From an uncultured Bacteroidales bacterium (lineage in GTDB: Bacteria; Bacteroidota; Bacteroidia; Bacteroidales; P3), in assembly GCA_900317285.1 (NCBI GenBank), contig ONGA01000011.1, positions 4,107-68,106 of the forward strand: 64,000 nucleotides of DNA, read 5' to 3'. The position numbers and the translations under genes are program-made. Numbering within the stretch: the first letter of the stretch is position 1; each line of letters opens with the position of its first letter. The notes beneath the pieces are model-generated. The model saw only the letters and a list, made by a program, of their open reading frames with translations. It did not search any database and was not told where the DNA came from. Positions 1 to 64,000 of this stretch are shown here, piece after piece.

Positions 1-1699
1 TGATGACGGCGACATGGAGGCAGAGCAGGGGGGAGCTGAGCACGGGCATGAGGTTGGTGACGGGCGGGTTGCTGCCGCTCATCATGGCGACCAGAAGGCA
101 GAAGCCCATGGTGAGCAGGGCTATCGGCAATCGCATTCCCTGTGCAGACGAGGACGTCTGCGCACCCAGTCCGATGATGCCGATGGCGATGGCCATGAGG
201 TTCATGCTGTCGAATCCGCCCGCCATGGGGATGTGGCCGCCAGCTATCCAACGGAGGACGAAGATAAGCAGGAGGTAAGAGGTAAGAACTAAGAGGTAGG
301 AGGTAAGGGCTACTTTCAGCCAACGGGGCATGTTTTTCCCGCGACCCTGGCACCAGAGACTGTAGGCGAAGCAGAGGAGACCGAGGGTGAGGGTGAGCAT
401 CGCCAGCCAGCGGCCGGTGGTGAGGGCGTTGTAGAGTCGCTCGGCTTTGACTCTCGTAGGGGAGGGGAGCACATTGGAAGCGCGTTTCTCCTGGAAGAGT
501 TTTATCTTCTCGAAGACCTGTTCCAGGGCTGCATAGTCGCCTTTCACGACCAGCTCCTGGCAGTAGCTGAGGTGTTTGCGGATGAAGAGGTACTCGTCGT
601 CGGAGACGGACAACGGGAGGTCGTCGTTTTGGGCGTACCAGCCGAGGACGCCGGTGCTGTCGGATACGGGGAAGAGTTTCAGGCCGCGGCCGGAGAGGAG
701 CATCTCTACCAGCGCCTTGCTTTCTTTCTGCCGCTTGGGTTTCACCTGGTCGAGGAGGGGCGCCCAGTCGCCGTAGTTGAAGAGGAAGCCGCTGAGGACC
801 TGCTCGGAGGAGAGGCCTTGGTAGGTGGCTTTGCCGGTGAGCTTGGTGGTGAAATCCTTGGCGAAGGTCTGCAGGGGGCAGATGCGGCCTTTGTAAAGGG
901 TGTACATCTCACCCATCTTGGAAGCGGTCTCGCGGGGCAAGGTTTTTGGCGCTGCCTGCGCCGAATTGAAGATTGAAAGTTGAAAATTGAGAATCAATAA
1001 AAGTCCCAGCGGGACGATGGTTTTTAGCCGTGGGCGCGAGCCCACGGATGGGGTGTTGTGGTGGCTTGAGCCCTGTAAGGGCGGTACATCGGCAGCTGGT
1101 TTTGTGTCGCCCCTACGGGGCTTCTGCTGCAGGCATAGCCATCCCAGACCAAGGAGGAGGAGGGCATAGCCGGTGTAGGTGACGGGGATACCCCAGGGGT
1201 CGTGGCTGACGCTGAGGGTGGTGCTGCCCTGGTCGTCGTAGTCCTCCTGGTAGTAGCGGCGGCCGCCGTGGCGGAGGATGTGGTTCATGGAGATGTCGAA
1301 AGGCTCGCCGTTGGCAGTGACGTGACTGACGAAGTCCATCGGGGTGTGGGTGCCGGGATAGTAGAGCACCTCGAAGCGCTCGAGGGTGATGCCCTCCTTG
1401 GTCTCGCCGGGGGCCAGGGTGATGCTGTAGTGCTCGCCCGTCCAGGTGGTGAGGGCGCCGCCGAGCAATATAATCGGTATTGACGCATGTATCAGCAGCG
1501 AGGCAGGCCGATGCCATAGCCGACCCTGCACGATGGCGACGATGGCAGCCACGGCCACAAGTCCCAGCAGCACGGCGAACCACCATGAGCCGTAGAAGTG
1601 GTCGGCCACCCATTCCGCCCCGCGGTAACGCTCAAAAACGGTGCCCGCGGCCAAAACTATGACCGCAAGCACCATCAAAAAGATTCTTGCTTTCTTCAT
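1..1699 (-). CDS. ccsA: cytochrome c biogenesis protein (System II, ResB-like N-terminus plus CcsA-like membrane domain); 3' end lies beyond the window edge
   Basis: Not in the ORF track because there is no in-window stop. Manual minus-strand translation from ATG 1697-1699 gives MKKARIFLMVLAVIVLAAGTVFERYRGAEWVADHFYGSWWFAVLLGL..., open to position 1. Multiple TM segments; YKGRICPLQTFAKDF block; RWIAGGHIPMAGGFDSMNLMAIAIG near the edge. Starts 16 nt after a di-haem c-type cytochrome gene. Confidence 0.6.
   Translation of the reverse strand, partial: MKKARIFLMVLAVIVLAAGTVFERYRGAEWVADHFYGSWWFAVLLGLVAVAAIVAIVQGRLWHRPASLLIHASIPIILLGGALTTWTGEHYSITLAPGETKEGITLERFEVLYYPGTHTPMDFVSHVTANGEPFDISMNHILRHGGRRYYQEDYDDQGSTTLSVSHDPWGIPVTYTGYALLLLGLGWLCLQQKPRRGDTKPAADVPPLQGSSHHNTPSVGSRPRLKTIVPLGLLLILNFQLSIFNSAQAAPKTLPRETASKMGEMYTLYKGRICPLQTFAKDFTTKLTGKATYQGLSSEQVLSGFLFNYGDWAPLLDQVKPKRQKESKALVEMLLSGRGLKLFPVSDSTGVLGWYAQNDDLPLSVSDDEYLFIRKHLSYCQELVVKGDYAALEQVFEKIKLFQEKRASNVLPSPTRVKAERLYNALTTGRWLAMLTLTLGLLCFAYSLWCQGRGKNMPRWLKVALTSYLLVLTSYLLLIFVLRWIAGGHIPMAGGFDSMNLMAIAIGIIGLGAQTSSSAQGMRLPIALLTMGFCLLVAMMSGSNPPVTNLMPVLSSPLLCLHVAVI
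271..308. repeat. degenerate 7-bp tandem repeat (GGTAAGA-like), in frame inside ccsA
   Basis: ggaggtaagaggtaagaactaagaggtaggaggtaaggg encodes LTSYLLVLTSYLLL on the minus strand. Shares GTAAGAACTAAGA with 56907-56930. Confidence 0.8.
964..997. repeat. GAATTGA/TCAATTC heptamer-family repeat, in frame inside ccsA
   Basis: aattgaagattgaaagttgaaaattgagaatcaa encodes ILNFQLSIFNS on the minus strand. Same word family as 8488-8550, 14947-15034, 57121-57153 and 63819-63844. Confidence 0.8.
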
Positions 1700-1715
1700 T
1701 CTCCTTAACTACAAA

Positions 1716-3284
1716 TTAGATGGCATTGATGAATTTCACCACGGCGTCGCGGTCCTCCTTTGAGAGTTGGCGGAAACGCTCGACGGTCCAGCGGGCGTCG
1801 CTCTGGGCGGAGCCGTGCCACATGATGGCCTCGATGACGTTGCGGGCGCGGCAGTCGTGCAGGCGGTCGGCATGGCCGGAGCAGATGGGTGCCAGGCCGC
1901 GGCCCCACAGCGGGGTGGTGCGGCACCAGCCTGTGCGGATGTCGTTTTTCATGAAGAGGCGGTGCTGCACCATGTCGGTGTAGGGCCAGATTTTCTGGTA
2001 GGGGTAGCGAGGCAGGCGGGCGTCGCCGTCGCTAAAGAAACCGTTGGGGTCGGTGAAGTTGTCGGGACCCGTCTCCCAGCTGGGACGGTGGCAGGTGGCG
2101 CAGCCCGACTCGATGAAGAGGCGTTTGCCGCGCTGTACGGTAGCGTCGGTGATGTTGCGGGCGGCGGGGACGGCGAGACCACGGTGCCATATCATGAAGT
2201 TGACATAGTCCTCATCGCTCATCTCGACGGGCAGGTCGGTGGAGGTGAGGTAGTTGTAGATGTCCTGCTGCACGTTGCCGGTGCGGTTCCAATCAGGGAA
2301 GTACTGGTAGAACTGTGCCTGCACGTCGGGGTCCTGTGAGGCGGCGGTGGCGTAGATGGTGGGGTCGAGGCTGAGGTAGTGCTTGCGGCGGTCGCTGCGG
2401 GTGACGTTAGTGATGTTCCAGATGGCGTTGGCGCCGGCGGCATCCTGCAGGGGACCGCGGCTGAGGGCGTAGGTGAAGCGCTTGGGATGCGTGGTGTTGC
2501 CATAGAGCGAGGCCCAGTCGCCGCCGGCCCAGATGGCGGGGTTGAGGGTGGCGCCAGCCTGCTGCTCACGCAGATACTGCGCCTTGAGCGAGTCGTCGGG
2601 GATGGCGTCGAGGAGACCAGTGCCGTAGATGCCAATGGTGCTCTCGAGGCGGAACGCCAGTTGAGAGTAGGGGGTGGAGAGCGGGGCGTAGAATGCATCC
2701 TCGGGGATGTTGACCTCGGGATAGATGAGGTCGTAGGTCTCGCCGTCGGGGAATCGGTTGCCCCAGTCGTCGGTGTAGGGCAGCCATGCGATGGTGATCT
2801 TCTCCTCGTCGATGGAGGGCTTGAAGGGCGCCACGGCCTTGGTTTGCGGCATGCCGGCCACGGAGGATTCATAGGCATTGGTGGCGCTGTTGTAGACCAC
2901 CAGCAGGTAGCCGTTGCCCCAGTCGTCGGCACGGTAGCGTTCCATGCGTCGTCCGTGGCCGTAGCCTGGGTGACAGCTCTCGCAGCTGGAACGTACGTAG
3001 AGCGGCCCGAGGCCGTTGAAGGGAGGGTTGTTCTGCGTCACGGTGTGCTCGAAAAACATCTCGCCGTATTTGAAGGCGTTGACCATGCCGGCGTTGACCA
3101 CGGCGGGAGTGGGGTCCTCGTAGGCCGAGGCCGACTGGTTGAAGGTGGTTCCGAGCAGACCGCCGGCGTAGGTTTCCTCGCTGACGCCCTCGGGGGCTGG
3201 CGAGGACTCTTTCTCGTCGCGGTTGCAGGCGGCGAAGGTTAGCGCCAGTGCGGCTGCGGATAATAATAATGTTGACTTTTTCAT
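1716..3284 (-). CDS. di-haem cytochrome c peroxidase-like lipoprotein (DUF1111 / putative thiol oxidoreductase family)
   Basis: 522-aa ORF. Lipoprotein signal (LTFAAC). Two CxxCH haem motifs (CESCH, CATCH). Sits in an imelysin neighbourhood. Confidence 0.8.
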   Translation of the reverse strand: MKKSTLLLSAAALALTFAACNRDEKESSPAPEGVSEETYAGGLLGTTFNQSASAYEDPTPAVVNAGMVNAFKYGEMFFEHTVTQNNPPFNGLGPLYVRSSCESCHPGYGHGRRMERYRADDWGNGYLLVVYNSATNAYESSVAGMPQTKAVAPFKPSIDEEKITIAWLPYTDDWGNRFPDGETYDLIYPEVNIPEDAFYAPLSTPYSQLAFRLESTIGIYGTGLLDAIPDDSLKAQYLREQQAGATLNPAIWAGGDWASLYGNTTHPKRFTYALSRGPLQDAAGANAIWNITNVTRSDRRKHYLSLDPTIYATAASQDPDVQAQFYQYFPDWNRTGNVQQDIYNYLTSTDLPVEMSDEDYVNFMIWHRGLAVPAARNITDATVQRGKRLFIESGCATCHRPSWETGPDNFTDPNGFFSDGDARLPRYPYQKIWPYTDMVQHRLFMKNDIRTGWCRTTPLWGRGLAPICSGHADRLHDCRARNVIEAIMWHGSAQSDARWTVERFRQLSKEDRDAVVKFINAI

Positions 3285-3343: not shown

Positions 3344-4507
3344 TTAGTTTTCTCTGACGACCTCGCTGGCGCGCTCGAGCTTCTCGCTCAGGGTGGCGCA
3401 GGCCTGTGCGGCGACGCCGTTGCGCTCGTCGGTGCGGTTGTTGACGAAGGGACGCGGCATGGCGTCGATGGCGACAAGGGCAGCGTCAATGGCCTCGCGC
3501 ACCTCGGCGTCGACGGAGGCGTTAAGGTCTTTCACATAGCTGTGGAGTGAGCGGCTCTCGTCGCGCTGACCCTCGTTTCCGCCCATATAGGCATTGCGGA
3601 TACTGAGGATGTTGTCGTAGAAGTCTTCCACCGACTTCTGGCTGTAGGGGCTTTCGATGTAGTGGATGTCCTCGTCGGAGGTACCCTCGTAGGGGCGGCC
3701 GATCTTCTGGGTGCCCACTTCGTCGGCGATGTCCATGCAACCCTGGATGATTTCCAAAAGGGCGGCTTTGCTGGTGGGGTAGATGCTACCGGCTTTGCCT
3801 GCGTTCTTCATGTTCTCGCCGTAGCTGTAGTTGCCGCCACCCACGGTGTACTCCCACTCACACTCTTCCATTTTCTGGGTGTAGTGGGCGGGTACGTTGT
3901 CCTCGCCGGCCCAGCTGATGGCCAGGCGGTAGCAGCAGTTGCGCAGGTCGCCCGCCACGGCGACGGCATAGGTGAGCTGGCTCGCGGTAATGTCGGCGAT
4001 GTTCTTGGGTGAGCCGTTGGCGAAGAGCACATACTCCAGACCGTGGAAGCCCAGCAGGGTGGTTTCGAGGCCGTTGGCGACGATGTCGCCGTCCTCACCG
4101 CCCAGCTGTGCCAGCTGGTTGGCGTTGCCCATGAGTGCGTCAAAGCGGTCGGCGTCGAGGGGCCAACTGTCGATGTGGGGATCGATACCGAAGTTGGAGG
4201 CCGGGCCGAAGAGGAAGGCCTCGCTCTTCTCCCACTGCTCGCGAGCGGCGAGGAAGGTAGCGCAGACGGTGTTGAGGCCGCTTTGGGTGGGGTTGGCTTT
4301 CAGTGCCGCCAGCTGCTCAACCAGCTGCTCGGCATTGGCGGCTAATGCTTTGTAGGTAGGTACCACGGTGTGGTCCACAAACTGTTCGGCGATAGCGGCG
4401 GCTTTCTGGTCGGTCGTCGTCACGTCCATGTCATCGTCTTTGCTGCACGAGGCAAGCGTCAGTGTGGCAGCTAAAGCCACGGCTAAAGTTTTGAATAAAT
4501 GCTTCAT
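3344..4507 (-). CDS. imelysin-family lipoprotein (peptidase_M75 / IrpA-like, iron-associated)
   Basis: 387-aa ORF. Lipoprotein signal (LTLASC). HxxE motif in LLGFHGLEYVLF. Adjacent to the DUF1111 gene. Confidence 0.8.
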   Translation of the reverse strand: MKHLFKTLAVALAATLTLASCSKDDDMDVTTTDQKAAAIAEQFVDHTVVPTYKALAANAEQLVEQLAALKANPTQSGLNTVCATFLAAREQWEKSEAFLFGPASNFGIDPHIDSWPLDADRFDALMGNANQLAQLGGEDGDIVANGLETTLLGFHGLEYVLFANGSPKNIADITASQLTYAVAVAGDLRNCCYRLAISWAGEDNVPAHYTQKMEECEWEYTVGGGNYSYGENMKNAGKAGSIYPTSKAALLEIIQGCMDIADEVGTQKIGRPYEGTSDEDIHYIESPYSQKSVEDFYDNILSIRNAYMGGNEGQRDESRSLHSYVKDLNASVDAEVREAIDAALVAIDAMPRPFVNNRTDERNGVAAQACATLSEKLERASEVVREN

Positions 4508-4529
4508 ATTAGTATTATGTTTTTAATTA

Positions 4530-5828
4530 TCAATTTCCGTTTTTAAAGAACCCAGTCCAGGTGATGCCCAGGGCGAAGAAAGGCTCGTTATTGTATTGGC
4601 TGTCGAAGAGGCGGATGCCACCTTCGGCTTTGAGAGTTACCTCGGGGATGGGACTGTAGTTCAGTCCCCCCGACACTACCTGCCGCTCGCACCAGCCGAT
4701 GTCGGTCATTACGCCGCCGGGCACAAAACTGTCGTAGTGGTCATAGCGGCCGAAGATGAAGAGCTTCTGCTTCGTTTTGCTCCAAGCGAGGGCGTTGATA
4801 CCGGCCTCGATGGCGGCATCCCAAGCACTCTCGCCGACGGCGGTATGGGGGTAGGGGTTACCCGTCATCGTAGTCTGGTTCATGTTGTGTTGCGAGATGA
4901 GCACGGCATCGTTCAGGTGTCCGTAGTCGACGTTGCCGCGCACGATGAGCCAGTGGCTTTTGTAAGCGAAGTCGAAAGCGCCAATCAGTACAGTTCCTTT
5001 CACGTCGTGGTATTTCGACGTCTCGCCGTAGTTGTCGGTCTTGATATCGTTGTTGAAGCTGTTGCCGATGTATCCGCTGAGGCTGAGACGCAGGCCAGGC
5101 ACACCTGACCAGTCGACCCTCGCGGCGCAGGCCAGGCTGCTGGCGGGACGGAACTCATAGGGCGAGGCGCTGCCGTTATGAATCCAGCCTGCATTGTTGA
5201 AGAAATAGGCGTTCAGAGCGGGAAGTACCTGCGCCTCATAGCGCCAAGCACCGCTCTTACCCCAAACGGAAACGCCAGTCTCATGCCATGTGCAGGGCAT
5301 GATGGTGTTTTCGCCCTCGGGGCGGTAGACGCTGAAAAACTGGTTGGGTGTGTGGCTGTTGTTGGTCATTCCTACGGGCACGACGATATGTCCTGCACGG
5401 ATGTTTAAAGTTTTGCTGAAACTTTTCTGTACCCAGAACTGTTCCAGTGCCACTTCGCCGCCGCGTTCCACCTCCTGCTCGAACTCACCGGCCTCTTCGG
5501 CTTCCATCTCGGTCGCCACCTCGGTGCCGCCATGTTCGAACTCAATCTCGGTGCCGATGCTCCATCCGTGGCCGAAGTCGTAGCCCAGCATGATGACGGC
5601 ATGGGGGAGGTCCACGCGCCCATGATCTGCGGCATCTTTATAGTTGGCGGGATACATGTAGCGGTGCACGTCGTCGCTGTAGAAATGGCGGCTGTAGACA
5701 GCCTCTCCATAACCACCGATAGTCAGGCGGCTTTTGGTGCCTGTAGTATCGTTTTGTCCCGAAACCGGGGCTTGGAAAGCAAGTGCAGAAATCGCACAAA
5801 GAATTAGTACACTTTTTGTTAATCGCAT
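4530..5828 (-). CDS. outer-membrane beta-barrel porin-like protein, first gene of the imelysin operon
   Basis: ORF 4530..5882. Start chosen at MRLTKSVLILCAISALAFQ (ATG 5826-5828), because the upstream ATG lies beyond the -7 promoter box. Alternating beta-strand pattern; aromatic-rich C-terminus. Confidence 0.6.
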   Translation of the reverse strand: MRLTKSVLILCAISALAFQAPVSGQNDTTGTKSRLTIGGYGEAVYSRHFYSDDVHRYMYPANYKDAADHGRVDLPHAVIMLGYDFGHGWSIGTEIEFEHGGTEVATEMEAEEAGEFEQEVERGGEVALEQFWVQKSFSKTLNIRAGHIVVPVGMTNNSHTPNQFFSVYRPEGENTIMPCTWHETGVSVWGKSGAWRYEAQVLPALNAYFFNNAGWIHNGSASPYEFRPASSLACAARVDWSGVPGLRLSLSGYIGNSFNNDIKTDNYGETSKYHDVKGTVLIGAFDFAYKSHWLIVRGNVDYGHLNDAVLISQHNMNQTTMTGNPYPHTAVGESAWDAAIEAGINALAWSKTKQKLFIFGRYDHYDSFVPGGVMTDIGWCERQVVSGGLNYSPIPEVTLKAEGGIRLFDSQYNNEPFFALGITWTGFFKNGN

Positions 5829-5851
5829 AATGCAGTTGTTTTTGTTGGTTG

Positions 5852-5859
5852 CAAAGATA
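5852..5859 (-). promoter_or_regulatory. Bacteroidota -7 promoter box (TATCTTTG) for the porin/imelysin/DUF1111/ccsA operon
   Basis: Plus-strand caaagata inside tgcaaagatag, 24 nt upstream of ATG 5828. Confidence 0.5.
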
Positions 5860-5937
5860 GATTCATTCCCTTGTATGGGCAATCACCACAATTGGTGATT
5901 TTTTATGCTTTTGTCTCGATGGTTTACCAAATATATG

Positions 5938-5945
5938 TATTTTTG
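5938..5945 (+). promoter_or_regulatory. -7 promoter box (TATTTTTG)
   Basis: tgtatttttgcaac, 45 nt upstream of ATG 5990. Confidence 0.45.
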
Positions 5946-5989
5946 CAACTCGAACAAAAATAGCTGATTTAATATAAATAACTGAAAAA

Positions 5990-6277
5990 ATGAACTTTAC
6001 TGGAATTATTATAGGGGTGTCGTCCTTTCTGTGCATAGGCCTTTTCCATCCTGTCGTCATCAAGGCTGAATATTATTTCGGGACCCGTTGCTGGTGGGTG
6101 TTCCTGCTGGTGGCAGTGGTCTGCATCGCCGGGTCGCTGCTTGTGGCGTCGACTATTCCGTCGACCATTCTCGGCGTGGTGGCTTTCTCCAGCCTGTGGT
6201 CGATTCTCGAGCTGTTCAAGCAGCGTGAGAGGGTGGAGAAGGGGTGGTTCCCCAAGAATCCCAAGCTTAAGGATTGA
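5990..6277 (+). CDS. small polytopic membrane protein (DUF4491-like)
   Basis: 95-aa ORF with three hydrophobic segments. Family name is from memory only. Confidence 0.5.
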   Translation: MNFTGIIIGVSSFLCIGLFHPVVIKAEYYFGTRCWWVFLLVAVVCIAGSLLVASTIPSTILGVVAFSSLWSILELFKQRERVEKGWFPKNPKLKD

Positions 6278-6375
6278 TTTGATTTCCTCCGATGCGGAGG
6301 AGTAGAAAATGGACCGGGGGCGTGGTGCATTCATGCGCCACGCCCCCGGCATAGGGTTCGTTGTGGAAGGATGGT

Positions 6376-8433
6376 TTACCAGAGGACGACGCGGAGCTCG
6401 GGAGCGAGCCACATGCCGTCGCCTTCCTTGATGCCGAAGGCCTCGATGAATTCGGTGACCTGGGGCAGGGCGACGTTGACGCGGTTGCGGCCGAGGGAGT
6501 GGACATCCATCTGGGTGAGCTGCAGGGCAGCTGCGGGGCGGATGTTGGAGGCCCAGACGGCAGCGTAGGCGAGGAAGAAGCGCTGTTCGGGGGTGAAGCC
6601 GTCCATCTTGTCGGTGTTGACTTGATTGGCTTTCATGGCGTTCTGCATGGCGAGGTAGCTGACGTGGAGACCGCCGTTGTCGGCGATGTTCTCGCCGAGG
6701 GTGAGCTCGCCATTGCCATGGATGAGGCCAAGTTCGGGATCGTCGAGGGCGACGCATTTGTTGAAGGCGTCGATGAGGGTCTGCTTGTTGCGGTCGAAGT
6801 TGGCTGCATCCTCGGCGGTCCACCAGTCGTTGAGGTTACCGTCCTTGTCGTACTGGCGGCCCTGGTCGTCGAAGCCATGGGTGAGCTCGTGGCCGATGAC
6901 GACACCGATGGCACCGTAGTTGGCGGCCTCGTCGGCGTTGAGGTTGAAGAAGGGAGGCTGGAGGATGGCAGCGGGGAAGCAGATTTCGTTGGTGGTGGGG
7001 TTATAGTAGGCGTTGACGGTCTGGGGAGTCATGCCCCATTCGTCGCGGTCGACGGGTTTGTTGATTTTGCTGAGCATGTAGTCCATGTCGAACTCGTTGC
7101 TGCGGACGACGTTGGCGTAGTAGCTGTCGTTCTTGATTTCGAGTTTGCTGTAGTCGCGCCACTTGTTGGGGTAGCCAATCTTGATGAGGAGGGTGGAGAG
7201 CTTGTCGTGAGCGTTTTTCTTGGTGGCGGCGGTCATCCATTTGGCCATGTCGATGCGCTGGCCGAGGGCGGTGATGAGGTTCTGCACGAGGGTTTCCATG
7301 CGGGCTTTCGCTTCGGCGGGGAAGTAGCGTTCGACATAGAGCTGGCCGAGGGCCTCGCCCATGGCGCCGTCGACGACGGAGGTGACGCGTTTCCAGCGGG
7401 GACGGTTGACCTCGCGGCCACTGAGGAGACGGCCGTAGAAGTCGAAGTTGGCCTCGACGAAGTCGTCGCTGAGGTAGGAGGCGGCGGAGTTGATTTCGTG
7501 CCAGGCGAAGTAGGCCTTGAGGGTCTCGATGTCGGCATCTTTCATCACTTTGTTGACTTCGGCGAAGTATTTAGGCTGGGCGATGTTGAAGGTCTTCATG
7601 CCATCGAGGATGTTCATGGCGGTGAAGTAGCCCTTCCAGTCGATGTTGGGAGCGAACTTGGCAGCTTCCTCAACAGAGTAGCGGTTGAAGGTGGACTGCG
7701 GGTCGCGGTTTTCGAGCTGGGTGTTCTGGCTCTTGGCGATGCGGGTCTCGAAGGCCATCACCATCTGGGCGAGCTTGTCGGCGCTTTTGCCGGCGAGTTT
7801 GTCGTAGCCGCTCATGGCGAATTCCTTGGTCATGAGTTCGACGTAGCCCTTGCGGATGTTCTTGTTGTTGCCCTCGTCGAGGAGGTAGTAGTCGCGGTCG
7901 CCGAGACCGAGGCCGCTCTGGTAGGCCCAGGCGATGCACTGCTTGGCGTCGTCCTTGTCGGCTTCACCGAAGACACCGAAGAGGACGTGGTTGCCACGAC
8001 GGTGCATCTTGAGGAGCTCGCCCCAGATGTCGTCGCGGGTCTTGAGGGCTGCGATTTCCTCGAGGTAGGGGGTGAGGGGTGCCACACCGTCGGCCTGCAG
8101 CTTGGCACTGTCCATGCCGATGTTGTAGAGGGTGGCAATTTTGTCGGCGATGGAGCCCTTCTCGTTCTGCATCTTCGAGACAGAGTCGATGATGCCCTTG
8201 AGGTTTTCCTGTGCGTTCTCGTGGAGGACGTCGAAGGCGCCGTAGCGCGAATGCTCGCCGTCGAGGGGATTGTTCTTCATCCAGCCGCCGCAGGCGTACT
8301 GATAGAAGTCGTCCTCGAGGCGGACGGTGGTGTCGAGGTTGTCCAGATTGATGCCCGAGGTGAGCTGGGGCTTCTGCTGGCAACCGGTAGCGATAACTGC
8401 CATAGTAGCAATACTTAAGATGGTTTTCTTCAT
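6376..8433 (-). CDS. pepO: M13 family zinc metallopeptidase (PepO / endothelin-converting-enzyme-like lipoprotein)
   Basis: 685 aa. Lipoprotein signal (IATGC). HExxH in VIGHELTHGFD. GENIADNGG motif. Confidence 0.9.
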   Translation of the reverse strand: MKKTILSIATMAVIATGCQQKPQLTSGINLDNLDTTVRLEDDFYQYACGGWMKNNPLDGEHSRYGAFDVLHENAQENLKGIIDSVSKMQNEKGSIADKIATLYNIGMDSAKLQADGVAPLTPYLEEIAALKTRDDIWGELLKMHRRGNHVLFGVFGEADKDDAKQCIAWAYQSGLGLGDRDYYLLDEGNNKNIRKGYVELMTKEFAMSGYDKLAGKSADKLAQMVMAFETRIAKSQNTQLENRDPQSTFNRYSVEEAAKFAPNIDWKGYFTAMNILDGMKTFNIAQPKYFAEVNKVMKDADIETLKAYFAWHEINSAASYLSDDFVEANFDFYGRLLSGREVNRPRWKRVTSVVDGAMGEALGQLYVERYFPAEAKARMETLVQNLITALGQRIDMAKWMTAATKKNAHDKLSTLLIKIGYPNKWRDYSKLEIKNDSYYANVVRSNEFDMDYMLSKINKPVDRDEWGMTPQTVNAYYNPTTNEICFPAAILQPPFFNLNADEAANYGAIGVVIGHELTHGFDDQGRQYDKDGNLNDWWTAEDAANFDRNKQTLIDAFNKCVALDDPELGLIHGNGELTLGENIADNGGLHVSYLAMQNAMKANQVNTDKMDGFTPEQRFFLAYAAVWASNIRPAAALQLTQMDVHSLGRNRVNVALPQVTEFIEAFGIKEGDGMWLAPELRVVLW

Positions 8434-8472
8434 TGTGTTATTTATTAATAATTGATTTCAAAAAAGCGGGTG

Positions 8473-8480
8473 CAAAAGTA
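8473..8480 (-). promoter_or_regulatory. -7 promoter box (TACTTTTG) for pepO
   Basis: tgcaaaagtacgaaaa, 40 nt upstream of ATG 8433. Confidence 0.45.
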
Positions 8481-8487
8481 CGAAAAA

Positions 8488-8550
8488 AAATTGAAAAATG
8501 AGGATTGAAAATTGAAAAAGATGCGAGAATTGAACTGAAAACTAACTACT
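8488..8550. repeat. GAATTGA-family heptamer stutter followed by AACTAAC words
   Basis: aaattgaaaaatgaggattgaaaattgaaaaagatgcgagaattgaactgaaaactaactactaacc. Confidence 0.7.
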
Positions 8551-8558
8551 AACCACAG

Positions 8559-10670
8559 CTAGAACTGTTGTCCGCTGGCGAGAAAATCGGAGACGAGGTC
8601 GAGGAGTTCCTTTCCGTATTTTTTCATGAAAACAGGACCAATACCTTTCAATGCCAGCAGTTGAGATGGGGTGCGTGGAGTATTGGCAGCGATTGCCATG
8701 AGAATGGATTGATGCAGGATTTGGAAAGGCAGTACACCTTCTTCTTTCGCTTTTGCTGTGCGCCAATGTTTTATAAGTGTTACAAGCTCGGGATTTGCGT
8801 TGGTTGGTAGTTCGCTGTCGTCACGCTTTCTTGTTTTTCTTTCCACTTTCTTCTCTCCATTTTCCTCTTTTTTCATCATGGCATCGACCTTGGCTTTCTG
8901 CACGGCCTGCACGCTGTAGCCTTTCTCTTTGACGGTGCGGAGGCATACGACCTTGACTTTCAGCGCCTCGGAGAGTTCCTTGCCCGCTTCGTCCACGTTC
9001 TTTTTGGTCTCCTTGTTGTCGATTTCCACCTCGAGAATGGCGGGCAATTGGGAATTGAAAAGGGCAATCTGCGCCAGGTAGTACTCGGCACCCTTGCGGG
9101 CGCGTTCATCCTGCTGCCGCTCGTCGAGGCGCATCAGCTGGGACTTGAACTTCTCGCTGACGGACTGGAGGTCGAGGAGCTTGGAAATGTGATTGTTGAG
9201 GCTGGAGAGCTGATCGGGGTAGATGTTCTTGAGCTTGGAGTAATGTTCCTGCAGGCGCTCGGCGAGGCGCACGAGGTCGTCCATGCCGAAGAGTTCCATG
9301 AGCTTGTCGAGACGGTACTGCCGCTCGTATTCGCTGGCGGCATCGGAGGCCTGCTCGAAGGTGGGCTGGCTGCTGACGAACTGGCTGACGGAGCGGTCTT
9401 CGAATGCCACGCCTGCGGTGAGGGGAGTGGAGAGGGTGAGGCCTTCGAGGGTGCGGCAGCGGCTCAGGGCTACATAGACCTGCCCGAAGGCGAAAGCATC
9501 GGCGGCATCGATGACCACGCGGTCGAAGGTGAGACCCTGGGCCTTGTGGATGGTGACGGCCCATGCCGCCTGCAGGGGGTACTGGCTGAAGGTTCCTTCC
9601 ACCTCCTGCTCTATTTCGTTGGTCTTCTCGTTCAGTTTGTATTTCAGGCTTTCCCACGTCTCGCGACTTGCCTGGATGACATCCCCGTCATCGTTGATGA
9701 CCTCGATATAGTCTTTCTTTTCTTCTTCGTCGTAAGTGAATTGAGACACTGTGCCCAGCATGCCGTTGTAGTAGCGGTGGCCGCCGGAGGAATCGTTTTT
9801 GACGAACATCACGCGCTCGCCGACCTTGATTTCCAATGTTCTGTCGCAGGGGAGCGACTTTTCTGGGAAGTTTCCTTTGAGGATAGCTTCAAAGGTGCGC
9901 CGCTCGCCACGGAGGGCATCCATGTGGCGCCGATTGATGGCGTCGGCCTGACGATTGTGGGTGGTGAGGGTAATGGCTTCTTTTTGAGTAATGCCAACGC
10001 GGCTGTTCAATGTATTTAGGGTGGTTGTGTCGATATTGTTGTCGCGCACATGGTTCAGAAGGTCGACAAATGCCTGGTCCTGCTGGCGGTAGACGGTGGT
10101 GAGCTCGATAGTGACATAGGGTATCCGCTGCAACGCCTTGCTGGCGAAGAAGTAGGGGGTGGGGTAGACCTGCTGCATGTAGGTCTTTTCGGCCTCCGTG
10201 ACCACGGGCGACAGCTGGTGCACGTCGCCAATCATCAGCAGTTGCACACCGCCGAAGGGACGGGAAGAACGGCGGTAGCGCCGGAGGGTCATGTCGATGG
10301 CGTCGAGCAGGTCGGCACGCACCATTGATATTTCGTCGATGATGAGTAGCTCCAGAGTGCGTATAACGTTGAGCTTGTTCTTGCTGAGCGACTTGCGGTT
10401 CTCCGGTAGTTGGTATTCGGTGACTAGTTCCTTGACGTCGGGCAGGTAGGGGTCAAAGGGCAGTTGGAAGAAAGAGTGGATGGTGACGCCGCCGGCATTG
10501 ATGGCCGCCACGCCCGTGGGAGCCACAATGGCGTGACGCTTGGGGCATCGTGCCGCCACCTCGCGCAGGAAGGTGGTCTTGCCGGTGCCCGCCTTGCCAG
10601 TGAGGAATACCGACACACCAGTCTGTTCGACATATCGGCGCGCCAGTTCTATTTGGGGGTTGGTTTCCAT
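8559..10670 (-). CDS. Pif1/RecD-like SF1 DNA helicase with a C-terminal HRDC-like domain
   Basis: 703 aa. Walker A GKAGTGKTT. Helicase motifs (IIDEISMV, VTIHKAQG). C-terminal LPFQILHQSILMAIA...LKGIGPVFMKKYG. Confidence 0.8.
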   Translation of the reverse strand: METNPQIELARRYVEQTGVSVFLTGKAGTGKTTFLREVAARCPKRHAIVAPTGVAAINAGGVTIHSFFQLPFDPYLPDVKELVTEYQLPENRKSLSKNKLNVIRTLELLIIDEISMVRADLLDAIDMTLRRYRRSSRPFGGVQLLMIGDVHQLSPVVTEAEKTYMQQVYPTPYFFASKALQRIPYVTIELTTVYRQQDQAFVDLLNHVRDNNIDTTTLNTLNSRVGITQKEAITLTTHNRQADAINRRHMDALRGERRTFEAILKGNFPEKSLPCDRTLEIKVGERVMFVKNDSSGGHRYYNGMLGTVSQFTYDEEEKKDYIEVINDDGDVIQASRETWESLKYKLNEKTNEIEQEVEGTFSQYPLQAAWAVTIHKAQGLTFDRVVIDAADAFAFGQVYVALSRCRTLEGLTLSTPLTAGVAFEDRSVSQFVSSQPTFEQASDAASEYERQYRLDKLMELFGMDDLVRLAERLQEHYSKLKNIYPDQLSSLNNHISKLLDLQSVSEKFKSQLMRLDERQQDERARKGAEYYLAQIALFNSQLPAILEVEIDNKETKKNVDEAGKELSEALKVKVVCLRTVKEKGYSVQAVQKAKVDAMMKKEENGEKKVERKTRKRDDSELPTNANPELVTLIKHWRTAKAKEEGVLPFQILHQSILMAIAANTPRTPSQLLALKGIGPVFMKKYGKELLDLVSDFLASGQQF

Positions 10671-10844
10671 AATCTTTTTAACGTTTTTCGCTAGATTTGA
10701 TTTTATTCAGCGGTGCTCAAAGCCCTAAAGGCAGAATTGCCGTTGATTATTCGTTAATTGCCCGTCAGTTTTATGCCAAATAAAATTATTAACGATAAAT
10801 TGACGGTCAATTATACGATAATTATAGTACCAATAAAACGAATG

Positions 10845-10852
10845 CAAAGATA
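10845..10852 (-). promoter_or_regulatory. -7 promoter box (TATCTTTG), candidate helicase promoter with a ~170-nt leader
   Basis: aatgcaaagatacgaag. Confidence 0.35.
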
Positions 10853-10876
10853 CGAAGTTTTTCTTATACGGCAAAA

Positions 10877-10884
10877 TATGTTTG
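10877..10884 (+). promoter_or_regulatory. -7 promoter box (TATGTTTG) for alaX
   Basis: aaatatgtttgcc. It overlaps the track's ORF start at 10882, so the real start must be ATG 10906. Confidence 0.4.
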
Positions 10885-10905
10885 CCAATTCGGCGTTATA
10901 TCAAC

Positions 10906-11373
10906 ATGGAAACACCGATACTTAATGAACACAATAAGCAGGAAGAGCCCCGAATGCATTCCTGCGAGCATATTTTAAACCAGACGATGGTGCGGATGTT
11001 TGGCTGTCCGCGGTCAAGGAATGCGCATATCGAAAAGAAGAAGAGCAAGTGCGACTATCTGCTTGACGCCTGCCCCACGGAGGAGCAGGTACAGGAGATT
11101 GAACGCAGGGTCAACGAGGTGATTGCGCAGCACCTGTCCGTCAGCTACGAGTTTGTGAAGAGGGGAGAAGTGCCGCTGGAGGTAGACCTCTGGAAGCTGC
11201 CCGACGATGCTAGCGAGACCCTCCGCCTCGTCCGCATTGGCGACTACGACCTCTGCGCCTGCGTTGGCACCCACGTGCAGAACACCTCCGAAATCGGCAC
11301 CTTCAAAATCCTCTCCCACGATTGGAATGAGGAGACTCGCACCTGGCGGATGCGGTTCAAACTAATTGAATAA
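10906..11373 (+). CDS. alaX: AlaX-S-like alanyl-tRNA editing protein (tRNA_SAD domain)
   Basis: Start METPILNEH. HxxxH (HSCEHIL) and CxxxH (CACVGTH) zinc motifs. ~155 aa. Confidence 0.7.
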   Translation: METPILNEHNKQEEPRMHSCEHILNQTMVRMFGCPRSRNAHIEKKKSKCDYLLDACPTEEQVQEIERRVNEVIAQHLSVSYEFVKRGEVPLEVDLWKLPDDASETLRLVRIGDYDLCACVGTHVQNTSEIGTFKILSHDWNEETRTWRMRFKLIE

Positions 11374-11402
11374 AAAAAGCGCTCAATCGAGCGCTTTTTT
11401 TT
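11372..11402. terminator. bidirectional intrinsic terminator between alaX and groEL
   Basis: A-run, GCGCTC aatc GAGCGC, then T-run. Confidence 0.8.
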
Positions 11403-11421
11403 ATTCAATGGAACTCGCGGC

Positions 11422-13077
<1,656 letters not shown>

Positions 13078-13078
13078 T

Positions 13079-13149
13079 CAATCAGAACTAAAAGAACAAA
13101 AAGAAAATTCTTGATGCTGTTTTTCTGATAGTTCTTTTCGTTCTGATTG
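13079..13149. repeat. palindromic ATCAGAAC element in the groES-groEL spacer
   Basis: CAATCAGAACTAAAAGAAC ... GTTCTTTTCGTTCTGATTG: 19-bp arms with one mismatch. Close homologue at 57775-57829. Confidence 0.8.
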
Positions 13150-13191
13150 ATATTAATTAATTTTGCTTGTTTTTTTAGTTTTGTTTGAGCT

Positions 13192-13464: not shown

Positions 13465-13500
13465 AATACTTTATTTTTAGTTTTCTTTTTTTTCTTATTA

Positions 13501-13764: not shown

Positions 13765-15678
13765 ATGCAAAATATTAGAAATATTGCAATTATAGCTCAC
13801 GTCGACCACGGAAAGACCACTCTGGTCGACCGCATGCTTCATCAGGCAAAGCTCTTCCGCGACAATCAGGAGACCGGCGAACTCATCCTCGACAACAACG
13901 ACCTCGAGCGCGAACGCGGCATCACCATCCTGTCGAAAAACGTCAGTGTCCGGTACAAGGGTTACAAAATCAATATCATCGACACTCCGGGTCACAGTGA
14001 CTTCGGCGGCGAGGTGGAGCGCGTGCTCAACATGGCCGACGGCGTCCTCCTCGTGGTCGACGCTTTTGAAGGCCCCATGCCGCAGACTCGCTTCGTCCTC
14101 CAGAAAGCCATCGAGCTGGGCCTCAAACCCATCGTGGTGGTCAACAAGGTCGACAAGCCCAACTGCGACCCCGAGCTGACGCAGGAGGCCGTCTTCGACC
14201 TCATGTTCAACCTCGGCGCCAACAACGACCAGCTCGAGTTCCCCACCGCCTACGGCTCCGCCAAGCAGGGCTGGATGGGTGAGGACTATAACACCCCCAC
14301 CGAGGACATCTCCTACCTCATGGACCTCATCATCGAGCACATTCCTGCTCCCAAGACCGACGAGGGTACCACCCAGATGATGATTTCCTCTCTCGACTAC
14401 AGTTCCTACCTCGGCCGTATCGCCGTGGGACGCCTCCATCGCGGCACCCTGCAGGCGGGTCAGAACGTCACCCTCGCCAAACGCGACGGTACTATGGTGA
14501 AGACTAAGATTAAGGAACTCTATGTCTTTGAGGGTCTTGGAAAAGAGAGAATAAAGACTCCTGTGGAGGCCGGTGAGATTTGCGCCGTGCTCATGGACCT
14601 CGACAAGAATGTCGCCTTCGAGATTGGCGACACCATCTGCGATATCGACAACCCCGAGGCTCTGCCCCCCATCAAGGTCGACGAGCCCACCATGTCCATG
14701 CTCTTCACCATCAACAACTCGCCCTTCTTCGGCAAGGAGGGCAAGTATGTCACCAGCCGCCACCTGCGCGACCGCCTCTTCGCCGAGCTGGAGAAGAACC
14801 TCGCTATGCGCATCGAGGAGACCGGCTCGCCCGATTCGCTGCTTGTCTACGGCCGCGGCATCATGCACCTCTCCGTCCTCATCGAGACCATGCGCCGCGA
14901 GGGCTATGAGCTGCAGGTGGGTCAGCCGAAGGTCATCATCCGCTACGGGAAAATTGAAAATGGAAAATTGAAAATTGAAAATTCGCTGCCGCACCCGGAT
15001 AATTCTCAATTCTCAACTCTCAATTCTCAATTAATCAAGTGCGAGCCTATCGAGCAACTCACCGTCCTGGTGCCCGAGGAGTTCAGCTCCAAAGTCATCG
15101 ATGTCGTCACCCGCCGCAAAGGCGAGGTGGGCACCATCGACACCAAGGGCGACCGTGTGCAGCTCGACTTCACCATCCCCTCGCGTGGCATCATCGGCTT
15201 GCGCAACACCCTTCTCACCGCCACCAACGGCGAGGCCATCATCGCCCACCGCTTCCTTGAGTTCCAGCCCTGGAAAGGCGACATGGACGACCACAAGTAT
15301 GGCGCCCTCATCGCCAAGGAGACCGGCGAGGCAACAGCCTACAGCATCAGCAAGCTGCAGGACCGCGGCCCCTTCTTCATCGAGCCGGGCGACCACGTCT
15401 ATGCCGGCGAAGTCATCGGCGAGAGCCTCCGTCCCGGCAACGACATCGTCATCAACGTCGTCACCGCCAAAAACCTCACCAACATGCGCACCAAGAGCGC
15501 CGACGAGAAGAGCACCTGCTCGCCCGCCATCAAGATGAGCCTCGAGGAGGCCATGGAGTACATCCGCGAGGATGAATACCTCGAGATCACCCCGCAACAC
15601 CTCCGCATCCGCAAGATCATCCTCGACGAAATCGAGCGCAAGCGCGCCCGCATCGCCGCCGGATACAAGGACGAGTAA
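13765..15678 (+). CDS. typA: translational GTPase TypA/BipA carrying a ~31-codon in-frame insertion
   Basis: 637 aa. [14 protein letters not shown]1 motif. Full-length BipA architecture. 30-35 aa longer than typical BipA. Confidence 0.95.
14947..15034. mobile_element. MITE/RPE-like palindromic heptamer element inserted in frame in typA
   Basis: Left arm (GAAAATT)n at 14948-14983, loop cgctgccgcacccggat, right arm (AATTCTC)n at 15001-15033. Encodes [29 protein letters not shown]. Confidence 0.7.
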
Positions 15679-40952: not shown

Positions 40953-41138
40953 AAGGTTTAAAGTTTACGGTTTACGGTTTAAGGGGCTACGCAGCCAATG
41001 AGCCTCCCCAGAGACAGACAAATCAATAATCCATAAACATTAATTCTTAACCCCTAACCCTTAAACTTTAAACCTTAAACCATAAACCTTAAACCATAAA
41101 CTTTAAACCTTAAACCATAAACCTTAAACCAAAAACCT
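40953..41138. mobile_element. composite palindromic element, copy 1: GGTTTAAGG-type arm, 42-bp core, long CCTTAAACC-type arm
   Basis: Left arm 40953-40984. Core ggggctacgcagccaatgagcctccccagagacagacaaatc. Right arm reaches ~41138. Confidence 0.65.
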
Positions 41139-41140
41139 TG

Positions 41141-41230
41141 ACATAGGAGCATCATATACGCATCATATACGCATCATAGGAGAACCCAAGGAGAAGTATA
41201 GGAGAATGGTAGTACAACCATAGGAGGCAC
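41141..41230. repeat. CATAGGAG / CATCATATACG word-stutter block
   Basis: acataggagcatcatatacgcatcatatacgcatcataggagaacccaaggagaagtataggagaatggtag...ccataggagg. Confidence 0.7.
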
Positions 41231-41280
41231 TTTTTCCGGAATTCATCCCACATTCTCCTATCCCTCGTCCCAATCTCGGA

Positions 41281-41410
41281 TAAGGTTTAAGGTTTAAAGT
41301 TTAAGGTTTATGGGGGCTGCGCAGCCAACAGACCTCCCCGGTGACAGACAAATCCGTAAACCTTAAACCCTCAACCTTAAACCATAAACCTTAAACCTTA
41401 AACCATAAAC
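41281..41410. mobile_element. composite palindromic element, copy 2 (same orientation)
   Basis: Arm taaggtttaaggtttaaagtttaaggtttatgg. Core gggggctgcgcagccaacagacctccccggtgacagacaaatc contains the palindrome GGCTGCGCAGCC. Right arm is AAACC repeats. Confidence 0.65.
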
Positions 41411-56166: not shown

Positions 56167-56907
56167 ATGGGACGATATTTTATACATTTGGCTTATAACG
56201 GAGGGTGTTATCACGGCTGGCAGACGCAGCCGGGGCTTCCGACGGTGCAGGAGACTTTGGAGGGTGCGTTGTCGACGCTGCTGCGCGAACCCATCGCCGT
56301 GGTGGGCTGCGGCCGCACGGACACGGGTGTGCACGCGAGCGATTTCTATGCGCACTTCGATGTTAATTCGGAATTAGGAATTAGGAATTCGGAATTGGTT
56401 TTTAAACTGAATTCGTTTCTTCCTCCGGATATTGTGATTTTTGACATTTTCCCCGTGGCGGAGAATGCGCACGCGCGTTTCGACGCGGTGGCGAGGACGT
56501 ACCAGTATCATGTGAGTGACCGACGGCTGCCGTTCCGCCAGGGGCAGTACTGCCGCATTTATTTCGTGCCCGACATCGGGCGGATGAACGAGGCGGCGCG
56601 GGTGCTGATGGAGTACGAGGATTTCACGTCGTTTGCGAAGCTTCACACGCAGGTGAAGACGAATATCTGCCACCTGAGCCGTTCGGAGTGGACGGAGGAG
56701 GAGGGCGGATGGGTGTTCACGATCCGCAGCAACCGCTTCCTGAGGAATATGGTGCGCAGTGTGACGGGCACGCTGCTTGAGGTGGGTCGCGGGAAGCTGG
56801 ACATCGCGGGTTTGCGCGAGATTGTGGAGAAGAAGGACCGCTGTGCGGCGGGTGTGAGTATGCCGGCCTGCGGCCTGTTCCTGACCAAGGTGGAATACCC
56901 CGGATGA
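56167..56907 (+). CDS. truA: tRNA pseudouridine(38-40) synthase TruA
   Basis: Start MGRYFIHLAYNGGCYHGWQTQPG. GCGRTDTGVHA catalytic Asp motif. Confidence 0.93.
   Translation: MGRYFIHLAYNGGCYHGWQTQPGLPTVQETLEGALSTLLREPIAVVGCGRTDTGVHASDFYAHFDVNSELGIRNSELVFKLNSFLPPDIVIFDIFPVAENAHARFDAVARTYQYHVSDRRLPFRQGQYCRIYFVPDIGRMNEAARVLMEYEDFTSFAKLHTQVKTNICHLSRSEWTEEEGGWVFTIRSNRFLRNMVRSVTGTLLEVGRGKLDIAGLREIVEKKDRCAAGVSMPACGLFLTKVEYPG
56365..56398. repeat. GGAATTN stutter in frame inside truA
   Basis: aattcggaattaggaattaggaattcggaattgg encodes NSELGIRNSEL. Confidence 0.75.
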
Positions 56908-56931: not shown

Positions 56932-57795
56932 ATGAAGTATATTGAGGTTTGTTTTACGATGGATGATACCGGCCTGTTCCGCGATTTGCTGGTGGACACG
57001 TTGGGCAACGAGGGTCCCTACGAGAGTTTCGTGGAGACGAAGGAGGGACTGAAGGCTTATGTGCCTGTGGACCTTTTCGATGAGACCTGGCTCCGGCAGC
57101 AGATGCAAGAGCTCCGCGACCAATTCCCAATTTTCAATTCTCAATTCTCAATTCAGGAGATGCCGGACAAGAATTGGAACGAGGAGTGGGAGAAGGGCCA
57201 TCAGGCTGTGCTGGTGGAGTATGAGGGCGGCAGCGTATGGGTGCGTGCGCCGTTCCATCCGCATCGCGAGGATGTGGACTACGAGCTGATTATCGAGCCG
57301 AAAATGAGTTTCGGCACTGCGCATCACCCCACGACCTACATGATGCTGAGCTATGTGGCGGAGTTGGATATGCAGGGCAGGCGCGTGCTGGACATGGGCT
57401 GCGGCACCGCGGTGCTGGGCATTCTGGCGAAGATGCGCGGAGCGGAGTATGTGGAGGGTGTTGACATCGACGAGTGGGCCTTCAATAATGCGCGCGAGAA
57501 CGCGGCGTCGAACGGTGTGGAGATTGCGCTGAAGCTGGGTGACGCCTCTTCTTTGCAGGGCTGTTTTGACGTTGTGATTGCGAATATCAACCGCAATATC
57601 CTGCTGAACGATATGGGGCGTTATGCTGCCGTGCTCAACGCAGGCGGCACGCTGCTGCTGAGCGGTTTCTACGAGGCCGACGAGGCGGCGCTGGTGGCCC
57701 GTGCGGGTGAGCTGGGGATGACGTTGGAGGGAAGGAAGAGCCGCGACGGCTGGTCGGCGCTTTGTTTAAAACTCAATCAGAACAAAAAGAACTAA
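56932..57795 (+). CDS. prmA: ribosomal protein L11 methyltransferase
   Basis: 287 aa. DKNWNEEWEK. SAM motif VLDMGCGTAVLG. Confidence 0.92.
   Translation: MKYIEVCFTMDDTGLFRDLLVDTLGNEGPYESFVETKEGLKAYVPVDLFDETWLRQQMQELRDQFPIFNSQFSIQEMPDKNWNEEWEKGHQAVLVEYEGGSVWVRAPFHPHREDVDYELIIEPKMSFGTAHHPTTYMMLSYVAELDMQGRRVLDMGCGTAVLGILAKMRGAEYVEGVDIDEWAFNNARENAASNGVEIALKLGDASSLQGCFDVVIANINRNILLNDMGRYAAVLNAGGTLLLSGFYEADEAALVARAGELGMTLEGRKSRDGWSALCLKLNQNKKN
57121..57153. repeat. TCAATTC heptamer stutter in frame inside prmA
   Basis: caattcccaattttcaattctcaattctcaattc encodes QFPIFNSQFSIQ. Confidence 0.8.
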
Positions 57796-63754: not shown

Positions 63755-63772
63755 TTTTAGCAGTTGAGACAA

Positions 63773-64000
63773 ATGAAAGCGTTTCCGAAAATATTGGTTT
63801 GCATAAGCATAATCCTCAGTTTTCAATTCTCAATTCTCAATTCTGCCACAGCGCAGATTACCCATGCCTCGCAGGGGCGCTTGGACGAGAATGCCACCGC
63901 CGCGCTCCAGAAAGCTGCCAAGAAACTCAGCAATGTCAAGTGCACGGTCTCCCTCACCGTCCTCGACTCGAAGAAGAAGGAGATTGCCCGTCAGAGTGCC
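63773..64000 (+). CDS. secreted protein, N-terminal fragment (possibly LolA-like); continues beyond the window
   Basis: Manual translation: MKAFPKILVCISIILSFQFSILNSATAQITHASQGRLDENATAALQKAAKKL.... Not in the track because there is no in-window stop. Confidence 0.5.
   Translation, partial: MKAFPKILVCISIILSFQFSILNSATAQITHASQGRLDENATAALQKAAKKLSNVKCTVSLTVLDSKKKEIARQSA
63819..63844. repeat. TCAATTC heptamer stutter forming part of a signal peptide
   Basis: gttttcaattctcaattctcaattct encodes SFQFSILNS. Confidence 0.8.

Follow-up and report, generated by a model that had tools for sequence, protein, structure and literature searches.

We analysed a stretch of 64,000 nucleotides (hereafter the window; C18:4107-68106) from the metagenome-assembled genome (MAG) of a rumen Bacteroidales bacterium, which comprises 2.07 Mb in 28 contigs and has a GC content of 54%. 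Tandem arrays of a 7-nt unit recur in the window, inside reading frames and between genes; GARAATT serves here as a joint name for the units AAAATTG and AATTCTC, which differ in a single position. The original prediction had described one heptamer family at five loci, and we found all five, at or within 1–8 nt of where it had placed them. On the minus strand at 964..994, a decayed solo arm (79% unit match) is read in frame in a gene for a ResB-CcsA fusion protein (ccsBA); its TC-rich strand encodes ILNFQLSIFNS and makes up the C-terminal half of the hydrophobic segment that precedes AQA. The arrays that follow here lie on the plus strand. The intergenic GARAATT array at 8487..8533 is flanked by genes for a PIF1-type helicase and an M13 peptidase; the TAnnTTTG-type promoter box of the peptidase gene follows directly downstream. 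A 96-nt segment of typA (14944..15039) corresponds to 15–18 nt in a conspecific strain and in all 18 congeners (GAGATTGACGGCCAGAAA, encoding EIDGQK). It contains a GA arm at 14952..14983 (AATTGAAAATGGAAAATTGAAAATTGAAAATT), in which the lone in-frame TGA is changed to GGA, a GC-rich loop of 17 nt at 14984..15000 (CGCTGCCGCACCCGGAT, of a GGCTGACGCA-like loop family) and, inverted relative to the GA arm, a TC arm at 15001..15032 (AATTCTCAATTCTCAACTCTCAATTCTCAATT). A solo TC arm in prmA (57121..57154, QFPIFNSQFSIQ) is likewise in frame; the array is as predicted, but its place is the final strand of the N-terminal domain, immediately ahead of the linker helix, and not the linker itself. Another solo TC arm (63811..63844, IILSFQFSILNS, then ATAQ) belongs to the signal peptide of a LolA-like protein, where it is read as SFQFSILNS; its 5′ neighbour is a loop-like 17-mer, TTGGTTTGCATAAGCAT. 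The identities of the host proteins were taken from Pfam. Furthermore, we found a sixth in-frame array, which had been overlooked: it belongs to a sister family with the unit CGGAATT/GGAATTA and lies at 56363..56398 (VNSELGIRNSEL) in a TruA-like pseudouridine synthase gene immediately upstream of prmA.

The enrichment over chance that had been supposed holds for the tandem form but not for the bare word. GAATTGA occurs 15 times in the window against an expectation of 8.94 ± 3.28, and 15 or more were reached in 5 of 100 shuffles, which is not significant; the six or so copies that stand singly (at 9052, 9738, 36286 and others) are what chance would give. A three-unit pattern of 25 nt (AATTGARAATTGARAATTGARAATT, up to three mismatches) yielded 11 matches at five loci of the window compared with 0.00 in 100 shuffles. 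Across the whole genome, 30 perfect tandem repeats of at least three units have a period of 7, compared with 2–6 for each of the periods 5, 6, 8 and 9. Tandem Repeats Finder reported 250 period-7 arrays, with AAAATTG (44), AAACCTT (32), AATTCTC (26), AATTCCG (11) and AAACCGT (10) as the main units. The copies are not an assembly artefact, because the exact 637-aa TypA with its insert is present on at least 21 contigs of independent metagenome assemblies.

A fuzzy scan of the genome gave 88 GARAATT arms, with 61 of 32 nt, 14 of 25 nt, 10 of 39 nt and 3 of 46 nt. The basic block is AATT(GARAATT)4, i.e. 32 nt, and in aligned arms the information content falls abruptly to background at both borders; such a sharply bounded block is unlike a product of slippage. 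Solo arms number about 70, and there are eight inverted pairs. Six hairpins share an exact 32+17+32 layout of GA arm, GC-rich loop and TC arm, which gives 81 nt or 27 codons. All six lie inside genes, each in a different one, and are read in one common frame that yields GA-arm peptide-x5-NSQFSxLNSQ(F/L); the single in-frame TGA of the GA arm is GGA in four of them and TCA in the other two. The typA arms agree with those of the hairpin at C14:79419 in 64/64 positions, including two shared variant positions, and the typA loop is identical to the inverted (reverse-complement) loop at C8:170343 in 15/17 positions. These shared private variants together with the conserved loop indicate copies of a defined element. 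In about 21 inverted pairs of three heptamer families (GARAATT, CGGAATT and AGGTTTA/TAAACCT) the G-rich arm is always 5′. Hairpins of equal polarity were found in G172, a genome from another family of the order, and their AGGCTTACGCACGAAAC-like loops of 16–19 nt are homologous to the loops described here. When GGCTGCGCAGCCAA was searched as a genome-wide conserved core motif, matches outside hairpins were at noise level.

The typA hairpin is a recent gain. A conspecific contig (L126/L128) shares 97.8% DNA identity over 3963-22932 of the window (19 kb) and has an empty typA site, in which 18 native nucleotides (GAGATTGACGGCCAGAAA) stand opposite 96 nt here and the DNA is near-identical up to both borders, so that typA has become longer by 78 nt or 26 codons. 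In lineage L150, which is ∼2% diverged, the filled allele agrees in 96/96 positions, and the segment is absent in 18/18 congeners compared. The nearest GTDB species, G010, is too diverged and rearranged for a synteny comparison. At the protein level the insert replaces residues 391–395 of E. coli BipA (alignment blocks end at 390 and resume at 396), and judging from this alignment it probably occupies a beta-hairpin turn, a fold-tolerant place. In other species a CGGAATT-family hairpin (PDSSEFGVRNSELAAAANNSALRTPHSAL) sits at a different TypA site, after K241-R (L127, a GCA_016295295 contig). A further insertion in frame is seen in the TypA proteins P0019/P0099 of relatives, where the same domain II site holds 10 extra residues, GSTTEGESSAPG.

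The ccsBA gene was found in three states, with the old decayed array of the window at 964, an array shared by G000 and G004, and a perfect TTTTCAA array of G004 (G004:C7, L130) in a third CcsBA loop, which is empty here. The array common to G000 and G004 differs by substitutions, which speaks for decay and not for homogenisation. At the prmA site, array-derived peptides occur in several non-sister species and a different 7-aa periodic peptide in two. A strain comparison for copy-number polymorphism had been suggested, and no difference in unit number was seen among 15 LolA-like members, seven CcsBA variants and three lineages at typA and 8487. The 15 LolA-like cluster members listed are uniformly 221 aa long, the arrays of the seven CcsBA strain variants are identical despite an unrelated 23-aa indel elsewhere in the protein, and lineages 2% apart do not differ in the 8487 array or in the typA hairpin. 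The argument that gain or loss of a unit would shift the frame of the host gene is arithmetically correct, as 7 is not a multiple of 3, but frameshift-prone behaviour did not emerge: with a copy number that is invariant in every strain sampled, there is no sign of frameshift-prone contingency loci. We also considered the arrays as sites of split (frameshifted) genes and rejected this, as the eight arrays between same-strand neighbours resemble ordinary short spacers. The only between-strain difference seen in array length concerns an AGGTTTA-type array (window 22900-22940 versus L128 20290-20350), to which the conspecific strain adds several units, at a point where synteny breaks.

These data bear on the explanation that each array is a microsatellite that arose in situ by local slippage on a chance GAATT-like proto-repeat, the resemblance between loci being due to a common mutational bias. 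Native empty-site sequence is sometimes unit-like (GAGATTGA in typA and TTCAATTT in ccsBA of G012), long arrays occur in some genomes (>100 nt in G046 and ∼270 nt in G273), and native sequence is replaced by the arrays and not merely lengthened, all of which can be cited for it. However, 61 of the 88 arms are fixed at 32 nt, strains show no copy-number variation, and the typA allele appeared as a complete 96-nt hairpin in one step with no intermediates. In addition, loop and polarity are conserved across families of the order, and one and the same unit is found at ∼90 unrelated sites. We therefore regard in situ slippage as improbable. The original prediction had left the choice between a spreading and a slippage-generated element; spreading stands, as one DNA-level family recurs in unrelated genes, whereas slippage does not fit the uniform arm length.

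For the genome-wide count and orientation map we used an in-house gene call (1690 genes; coding fraction of the genome, 90.5%), and 56 of the 88 GARAATT arms (64%) fell within predicted genes. Forty of these are translated from the TC strand, with an even use of frames (15/11/14). The TC strand encodes the cyclic peptide QFSI(L/F)N(S/F), and the expectation that a 7-nt unit read in frame gives a 7-aa periodic peptide was borne out. How often a heptamer family occurs in genes follows the stop content of its unit. CGGAATT has no stop codon on either strand and is found in genes in 9/11 cases; GARAATT, with no stop in any frame of the TC strand and TGA on the GA strand, reaches ∼64%; TAAACCT has TAA on both strands and is never found in a gene (0/32). 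Among all period-7 arrays, the numbers inside and outside coding sequences are 47/14 for units with no stop-bearing strand, 69/54 for units with one and 5/56 for units with two. Because the in-gene fractions rank by the number of stop-free strands, we infer a selection filter that acts on roughly position-blind insertion. Tolerated sites include signal peptides, the end of the CcsBA hydrophobic segment, the turn at BipA 391–395 and the last strand of the PrmA N-terminal domain; the supposition that insertions coincide with tolerant places agrees with the signal peptide, the tail of the hydrophobic segment and the putative TypA beta-hairpin turn. N-terminal signal peptides hold ∼10 arms compared with 5.6 expected (p = 0.049), and the more hydrophobic TTTTCAA version predominates there.

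This excess in signal peptides, with its preference for TTTTCAA, is what would be expected if the periodic peptide itself (FNFQFSI / NSQFSIL) was the selected module, for example as an extension of the hydrophobic region of signal peptides. However, the same DNA is found in the cytoplasmic proteins TypA, PrmA and TruA, in intergenic DNA and, translated in the opposite direction, as ELKIEN. The nucleotide identity between copies is above what selection on the peptide would need, and synonymous array sites appear to be as conserved as non-synonymous ones. Selection at the peptide level is thus very improbable as the origin of the family.

For each of the six coding GARAATT hairpins the calculated fold is weak in the mRNA sense (−9.7 to −22.5 kcal/mol) and strong on the antisense strand (−24.7 to −34.9 kcal/mol), a difference that results from mismatches which are A·C on one strand and G·U on the other. 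On the basis of these values, RNA structure looks as if it was selected against in the coding hairpins. The sister family AGGTTTA/TAAACCT forms arrays of up to 15 units at 38043-38121, 40955-41139 and 41281-41410 of the window. The latter two are intergenic hairpins (40955..41410, no strand assigned) with the core GGCT(A/G)CGCAGCCAA; they are sister elements and lie outside the GARAATT finding. About 10 intergenic AGGTTTA hairpins, with folding energies of −27 to −58 kcal/mol, fill spacers 2–10 nt past stop codons and are candidate terminators or 3′-stabilising elements.

Such positions raise the question whether the hairpins are functional structured elements, selected as RNA or DNA signals (terminator, 3′-end stabiliser, promoter-upstream element or binding site of a heptamer-reading protein), with the in-gene copies as spill-over. 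The ∼10 AGGTTTA hairpins in short spacers after stop codons would suit this explanation, as would several GARAATT arms that end 4–7 nt upstream of a TTCGTAyyTTTGCA promoter box and a loop motif that is conserved across families; transcript stabilisation has been proposed for the STRR hairpins of cyanobacteria (PMC2670836). However, 64% of the GARAATT arms lie in genes of unrelated function, the occupancy of sites is not conserved between species, and the fold on the mRNA-sense strand is the weak one in all six coding GARAATT hairpins. Rfam searches, both with gathering thresholds and with E-values, gave no family for the heptamer elements and only sub-threshold matches to generic miRNA hairpins. 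A signalling function as the basis of the family is unlikely, although we give it somewhat more weight than local slippage.

Outside this genome the family is unevenly distributed. The number of pattern matches per genome ranged from 0 to ∼366 in 61 congeners, and the heptamer family forms patchy blooms across the genus, with up to ∼350 copies in a genome. At low copy it was found in 42/151 sampled genomes of the order and 18/201 of the phylum (own genome included in each), with controls near zero. In G400, from another class of the phylum, AATTCTC arrays (L161 and L168) stand just before LPSG(I/V)YFY in two C-terminal sorting domains of the type IX secretion system (NSQFSILNSQLPSGIYFY).

From the sharply bounded arms, the shared variants and loops, the one-step gain at typA and the coding-compatible distribution, we conclude that the five loci are probably copies of one dispersed, non-autonomous palindromic repeat family, which spreads, is compatible with open reading frames and is filtered by selection. 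With spread demonstrated at typA, a copy-in process would write new copies into the chromosome at the other sites as well. It would act on a hairpin-forming single strand or by template switching; in the typA case ∼18 nt of target were replaced, and a target-site duplication was not left behind. Insertion would be largely indifferent to coding sequence, and purifying selection would then decide which copies persist. The stop-free TC strand, the length of 27 codons and the exchange of TGA for GGA or TCA may allow copies to survive at tolerant sites of genes. Once established, the copies decay via point substitution and are not slippage-active microsatellites.

Several observations weigh against this interpretation. 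At typA, 18 nt gave way to 96 nt, which is no clean insertion, and at the prmA and ccsBA sites native sequence was replaced by the array with little net change in length. A target-site duplication was not detected at any of the six hairpins. The search of this genome for a donor of the typA element by junction and loop sequences gave no copy with matching flanks, the only related loops being those at C8:170343 and C14:171122. The comparison of filled and empty sites rests on a single fresh pair, typA. Loops differ between copies at ∼5–7 of 17 positions, more than the arms do, which is odd for simple copying. A loop-like 17-mer (at least 10/17 positions) was found beside 5/72 solo arms compared with 1% of random sites, a weak enrichment; for most solo arms the scarcity of such neighbours indicates that they are not simple half-hairpins. 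A mobilising enzyme for the heptamers was not found: the only gene in question, a Y1 transposase gene resembling RAYTs (REP-associated tyrosine transposases; C13:30799-31242), is accompanied by GC-rich repetitive extragenic palindromic (REP) hairpins and not by heptamers. Finally, the presence of Y1_Tnp does not track with array load in 30 congeners. Array-rich genomes without Y1_Tnp are G008, G010, G033 and G055, and array-free genomes with Y1_Tnp are G005, G011, G032 and G034, several of these genomes being incomplete MAGs.

The hairpins flanking the Y1_Tnp gene (C13:30700-31450) consist of CCGTGGGC-N4-GCCCACGG and GCCCC-N3-GGGGC, and the same ones occur in the CcsBA linker. Given these GC-rich flanking hairpins of its own and the lack of co-occurrence with arrays, the RAYT serves another repeat family. 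For the same two reasons, its own REPs and no genus-wide co-occurrence, a RAYT/REPIN model for the heptamers was ruled out. A classical miniature inverted-repeat transposable element (MITE) was ruled out as well: target-site duplications are missing, and a parent insertion sequence, looked for in this genome as a GA-arm/TC-arm pair enclosing a transposase-like segment of 0.5–8 kb, was not found.

The absence of target-site duplications and the strict polarity would also be accounted for by a repair scar, in which a dedicated enzyme would extend the two 3′ ends of a break by ∼4.6 templated G-rich heptamers together with part of the loop; joining of the ends would then yield the order G-rich arm, junction and C-rich arm. 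The G-rich arm is 5′ in all ∼21 pairs of the three families and also in G172, the arm length is fixed, a few target bases were lost at typA, and the same heptamer is scattered over the phylum. However, no candidate enzyme was identified, although no search was aimed at one; the loops are homologous and not random junctions, a two-ended event leaves solo arms unexplained, and variant positions common to the arms of different copies point to existing elements as the source. We give little credence to this explanation, about as little as to local slippage. An equally doubtful extension is that the arrays are not mutual copies at all and that a Bacteroidota-wide enzyme writes a fixed number of G-rich heptamers and a GC-rich core onto 3′ ends at breaks or nicks. 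Such an enzyme would explain the G-rich-first polarity, the 32-nt arm, the missing target duplication and the lost target bases. If this was true, genes would be healed in frame by a templated patch, and the enzyme would represent a bacterial end-healing system without a described counterpart.

Some further features were noticed in the course of the analysis. The CcsBA linker (∼1090-1160) carries the 23-aa indel PRQGRQTLAxGVSPRDNEGKDxE among 99%-identical strains (P0141-P0152), which has no connection with the heptamers. GC-rich REP-like hairpins (CCGTGGGC-N4-GCCCACGG, GCCCC-N3-GGGGC and GTCCC-N3-GGGAC) lie in frame in the same linker at 1002-1121 of the window, and the copy at 1002-1047 on the minus strand matches the Rfam family Acido-Lenti-1 with 40.4 bits (gathering threshold 37). 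These GC-rich hairpins look like a second, RAYT-linked repeat family that likewise enters a reading frame. The multi-copy DUF6266 family has a conserved upstream region of ∼300 nt which, together with the first ∼35 codons (MAKLHQGILGGFSGTVGTVIGYRRNNQWF...), breaks the assembly at no fewer than 10 contig ends (C18:1-300, C4, C15, C2, C14, C21, C22, C9, C20 and C8); a GARAATT arm lies ∼135 nt upstream of each DUF6266 start codon. A cobalamin riboswitch (Rfam RF00174, 100.7 bits) is located at 29107-29299 of the window on the minus strand, upstream of a TonB-dependent receptor region.

We compared the heptamer family with known systems. Mazel (1990) and Elhai (2008) are said to have described heptamer repeats of the STRR type in cyanobacteria and small dispersed repeats embedded in them. 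The likeness to STRRs lies in dispersed 7-bp tandem repeats of several unit families, intergenic inverted hairpins and a small conserved module. STRRs and the small dispersed repeats associated with them are treated in several papers (PMC2670836, PMC5861425, PMC4390886). However, the STRRs have been described from intergenic DNA or RNA genes, whereas in two of the families found here the majority of copies is translated in frame, and the cyanobacterial units (CCCCAGT and others) differ from GARAATT, CGGAATT and AGGTTTA in Bacteroidales. No paper in the collection searched ties heptamer repeats to Bacteroidota.

The Rickettsia palindromic elements (RPEs; Ogata et al. 2000/2002) are selfish in-frame palindromic repeats of ∼100–150 bp with no known transposase (PMC10969869). 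Both they and the heptamer elements are short palindromes with many in-frame copies in unrelated housekeeping genes, a conserved peptide, fold-compatible sites and no known transposase. In contrast to the RPEs of an alphaproteobacterial intracellular parasite, which have ∼100–150 bp and no tandem heptamers, we are dealing with an 81-nt element with four-unit 7-nt arms, mostly present as solo 32-nt arms, in free-living gut Bacteroidales. By their description the heptamer elements may be regarded as an analogue of the RPEs and not as a member; homology would not be expected given the heptamer build. With REP/REPIN-RAYT systems (PMC3116915) the family shares inverted doublets that form hairpins (here to −35 kcal/mol), abundant singlets with the look of remnants and the absence of target-site duplications, but REPINs are extragenic and found beside their own RAYT, whereas 64% of the arms are intragenic here and have no cognate RAYT. 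Like MITEs (PMC10969869) the elements are small, non-coding, multicopy and strain-variable and have terminal inverted repeats (here 32 nt, with 81 nt in total and no open reading frame of their own). In contrast to MITEs, target-site duplications and a parent insertion sequence were not found, and nearly the entire element consists of the inverted repeats, which are tandem arrays in their own right. Heptanucleotide repeats are also known as contingency loci of Haemophilus hmw genes (PMC8262952). These resemble our arrays in their tandem 7-nt units, gain or loss of which would shift the frame or the promoter spacing; here, however, arrays of fixed length occur in housekeeping genes, as opposed to surface or variable ones, and polymorphism in unit number was not seen. 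In summary, the family works like RPEs and is built like STRRs, and it lacks the defining traits of MITEs and REPINs.

The finding raises a defined mechanistic question, namely by which enzyme a heptamer hairpin of fixed size (32/81 nt) is copied across a phylum, in strict polarity and with no target duplication. It accounts for odd low-complexity peptides (NSQFSIL, ELKIEN and NSEFGIR), which can be expected to recur in the annotation of Bacteroidales MAGs, and it offers essential proteins (TypA, PrmA, TruA, CcsBA and the LolA-like protein) with recent insertions in frame as material for the study of fold tolerance. Three sister heptamer families in one genome represent a natural experiment, in which compatibility with coding alone would decide the site where a copy persists. 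Protein-coding palindromes have counted as a trait peculiar to Rickettsia; the present ones occur in abundant gut and rumen Bacteroidales with another build, made of heptamers, 27 codons long and with one stop-free strand.

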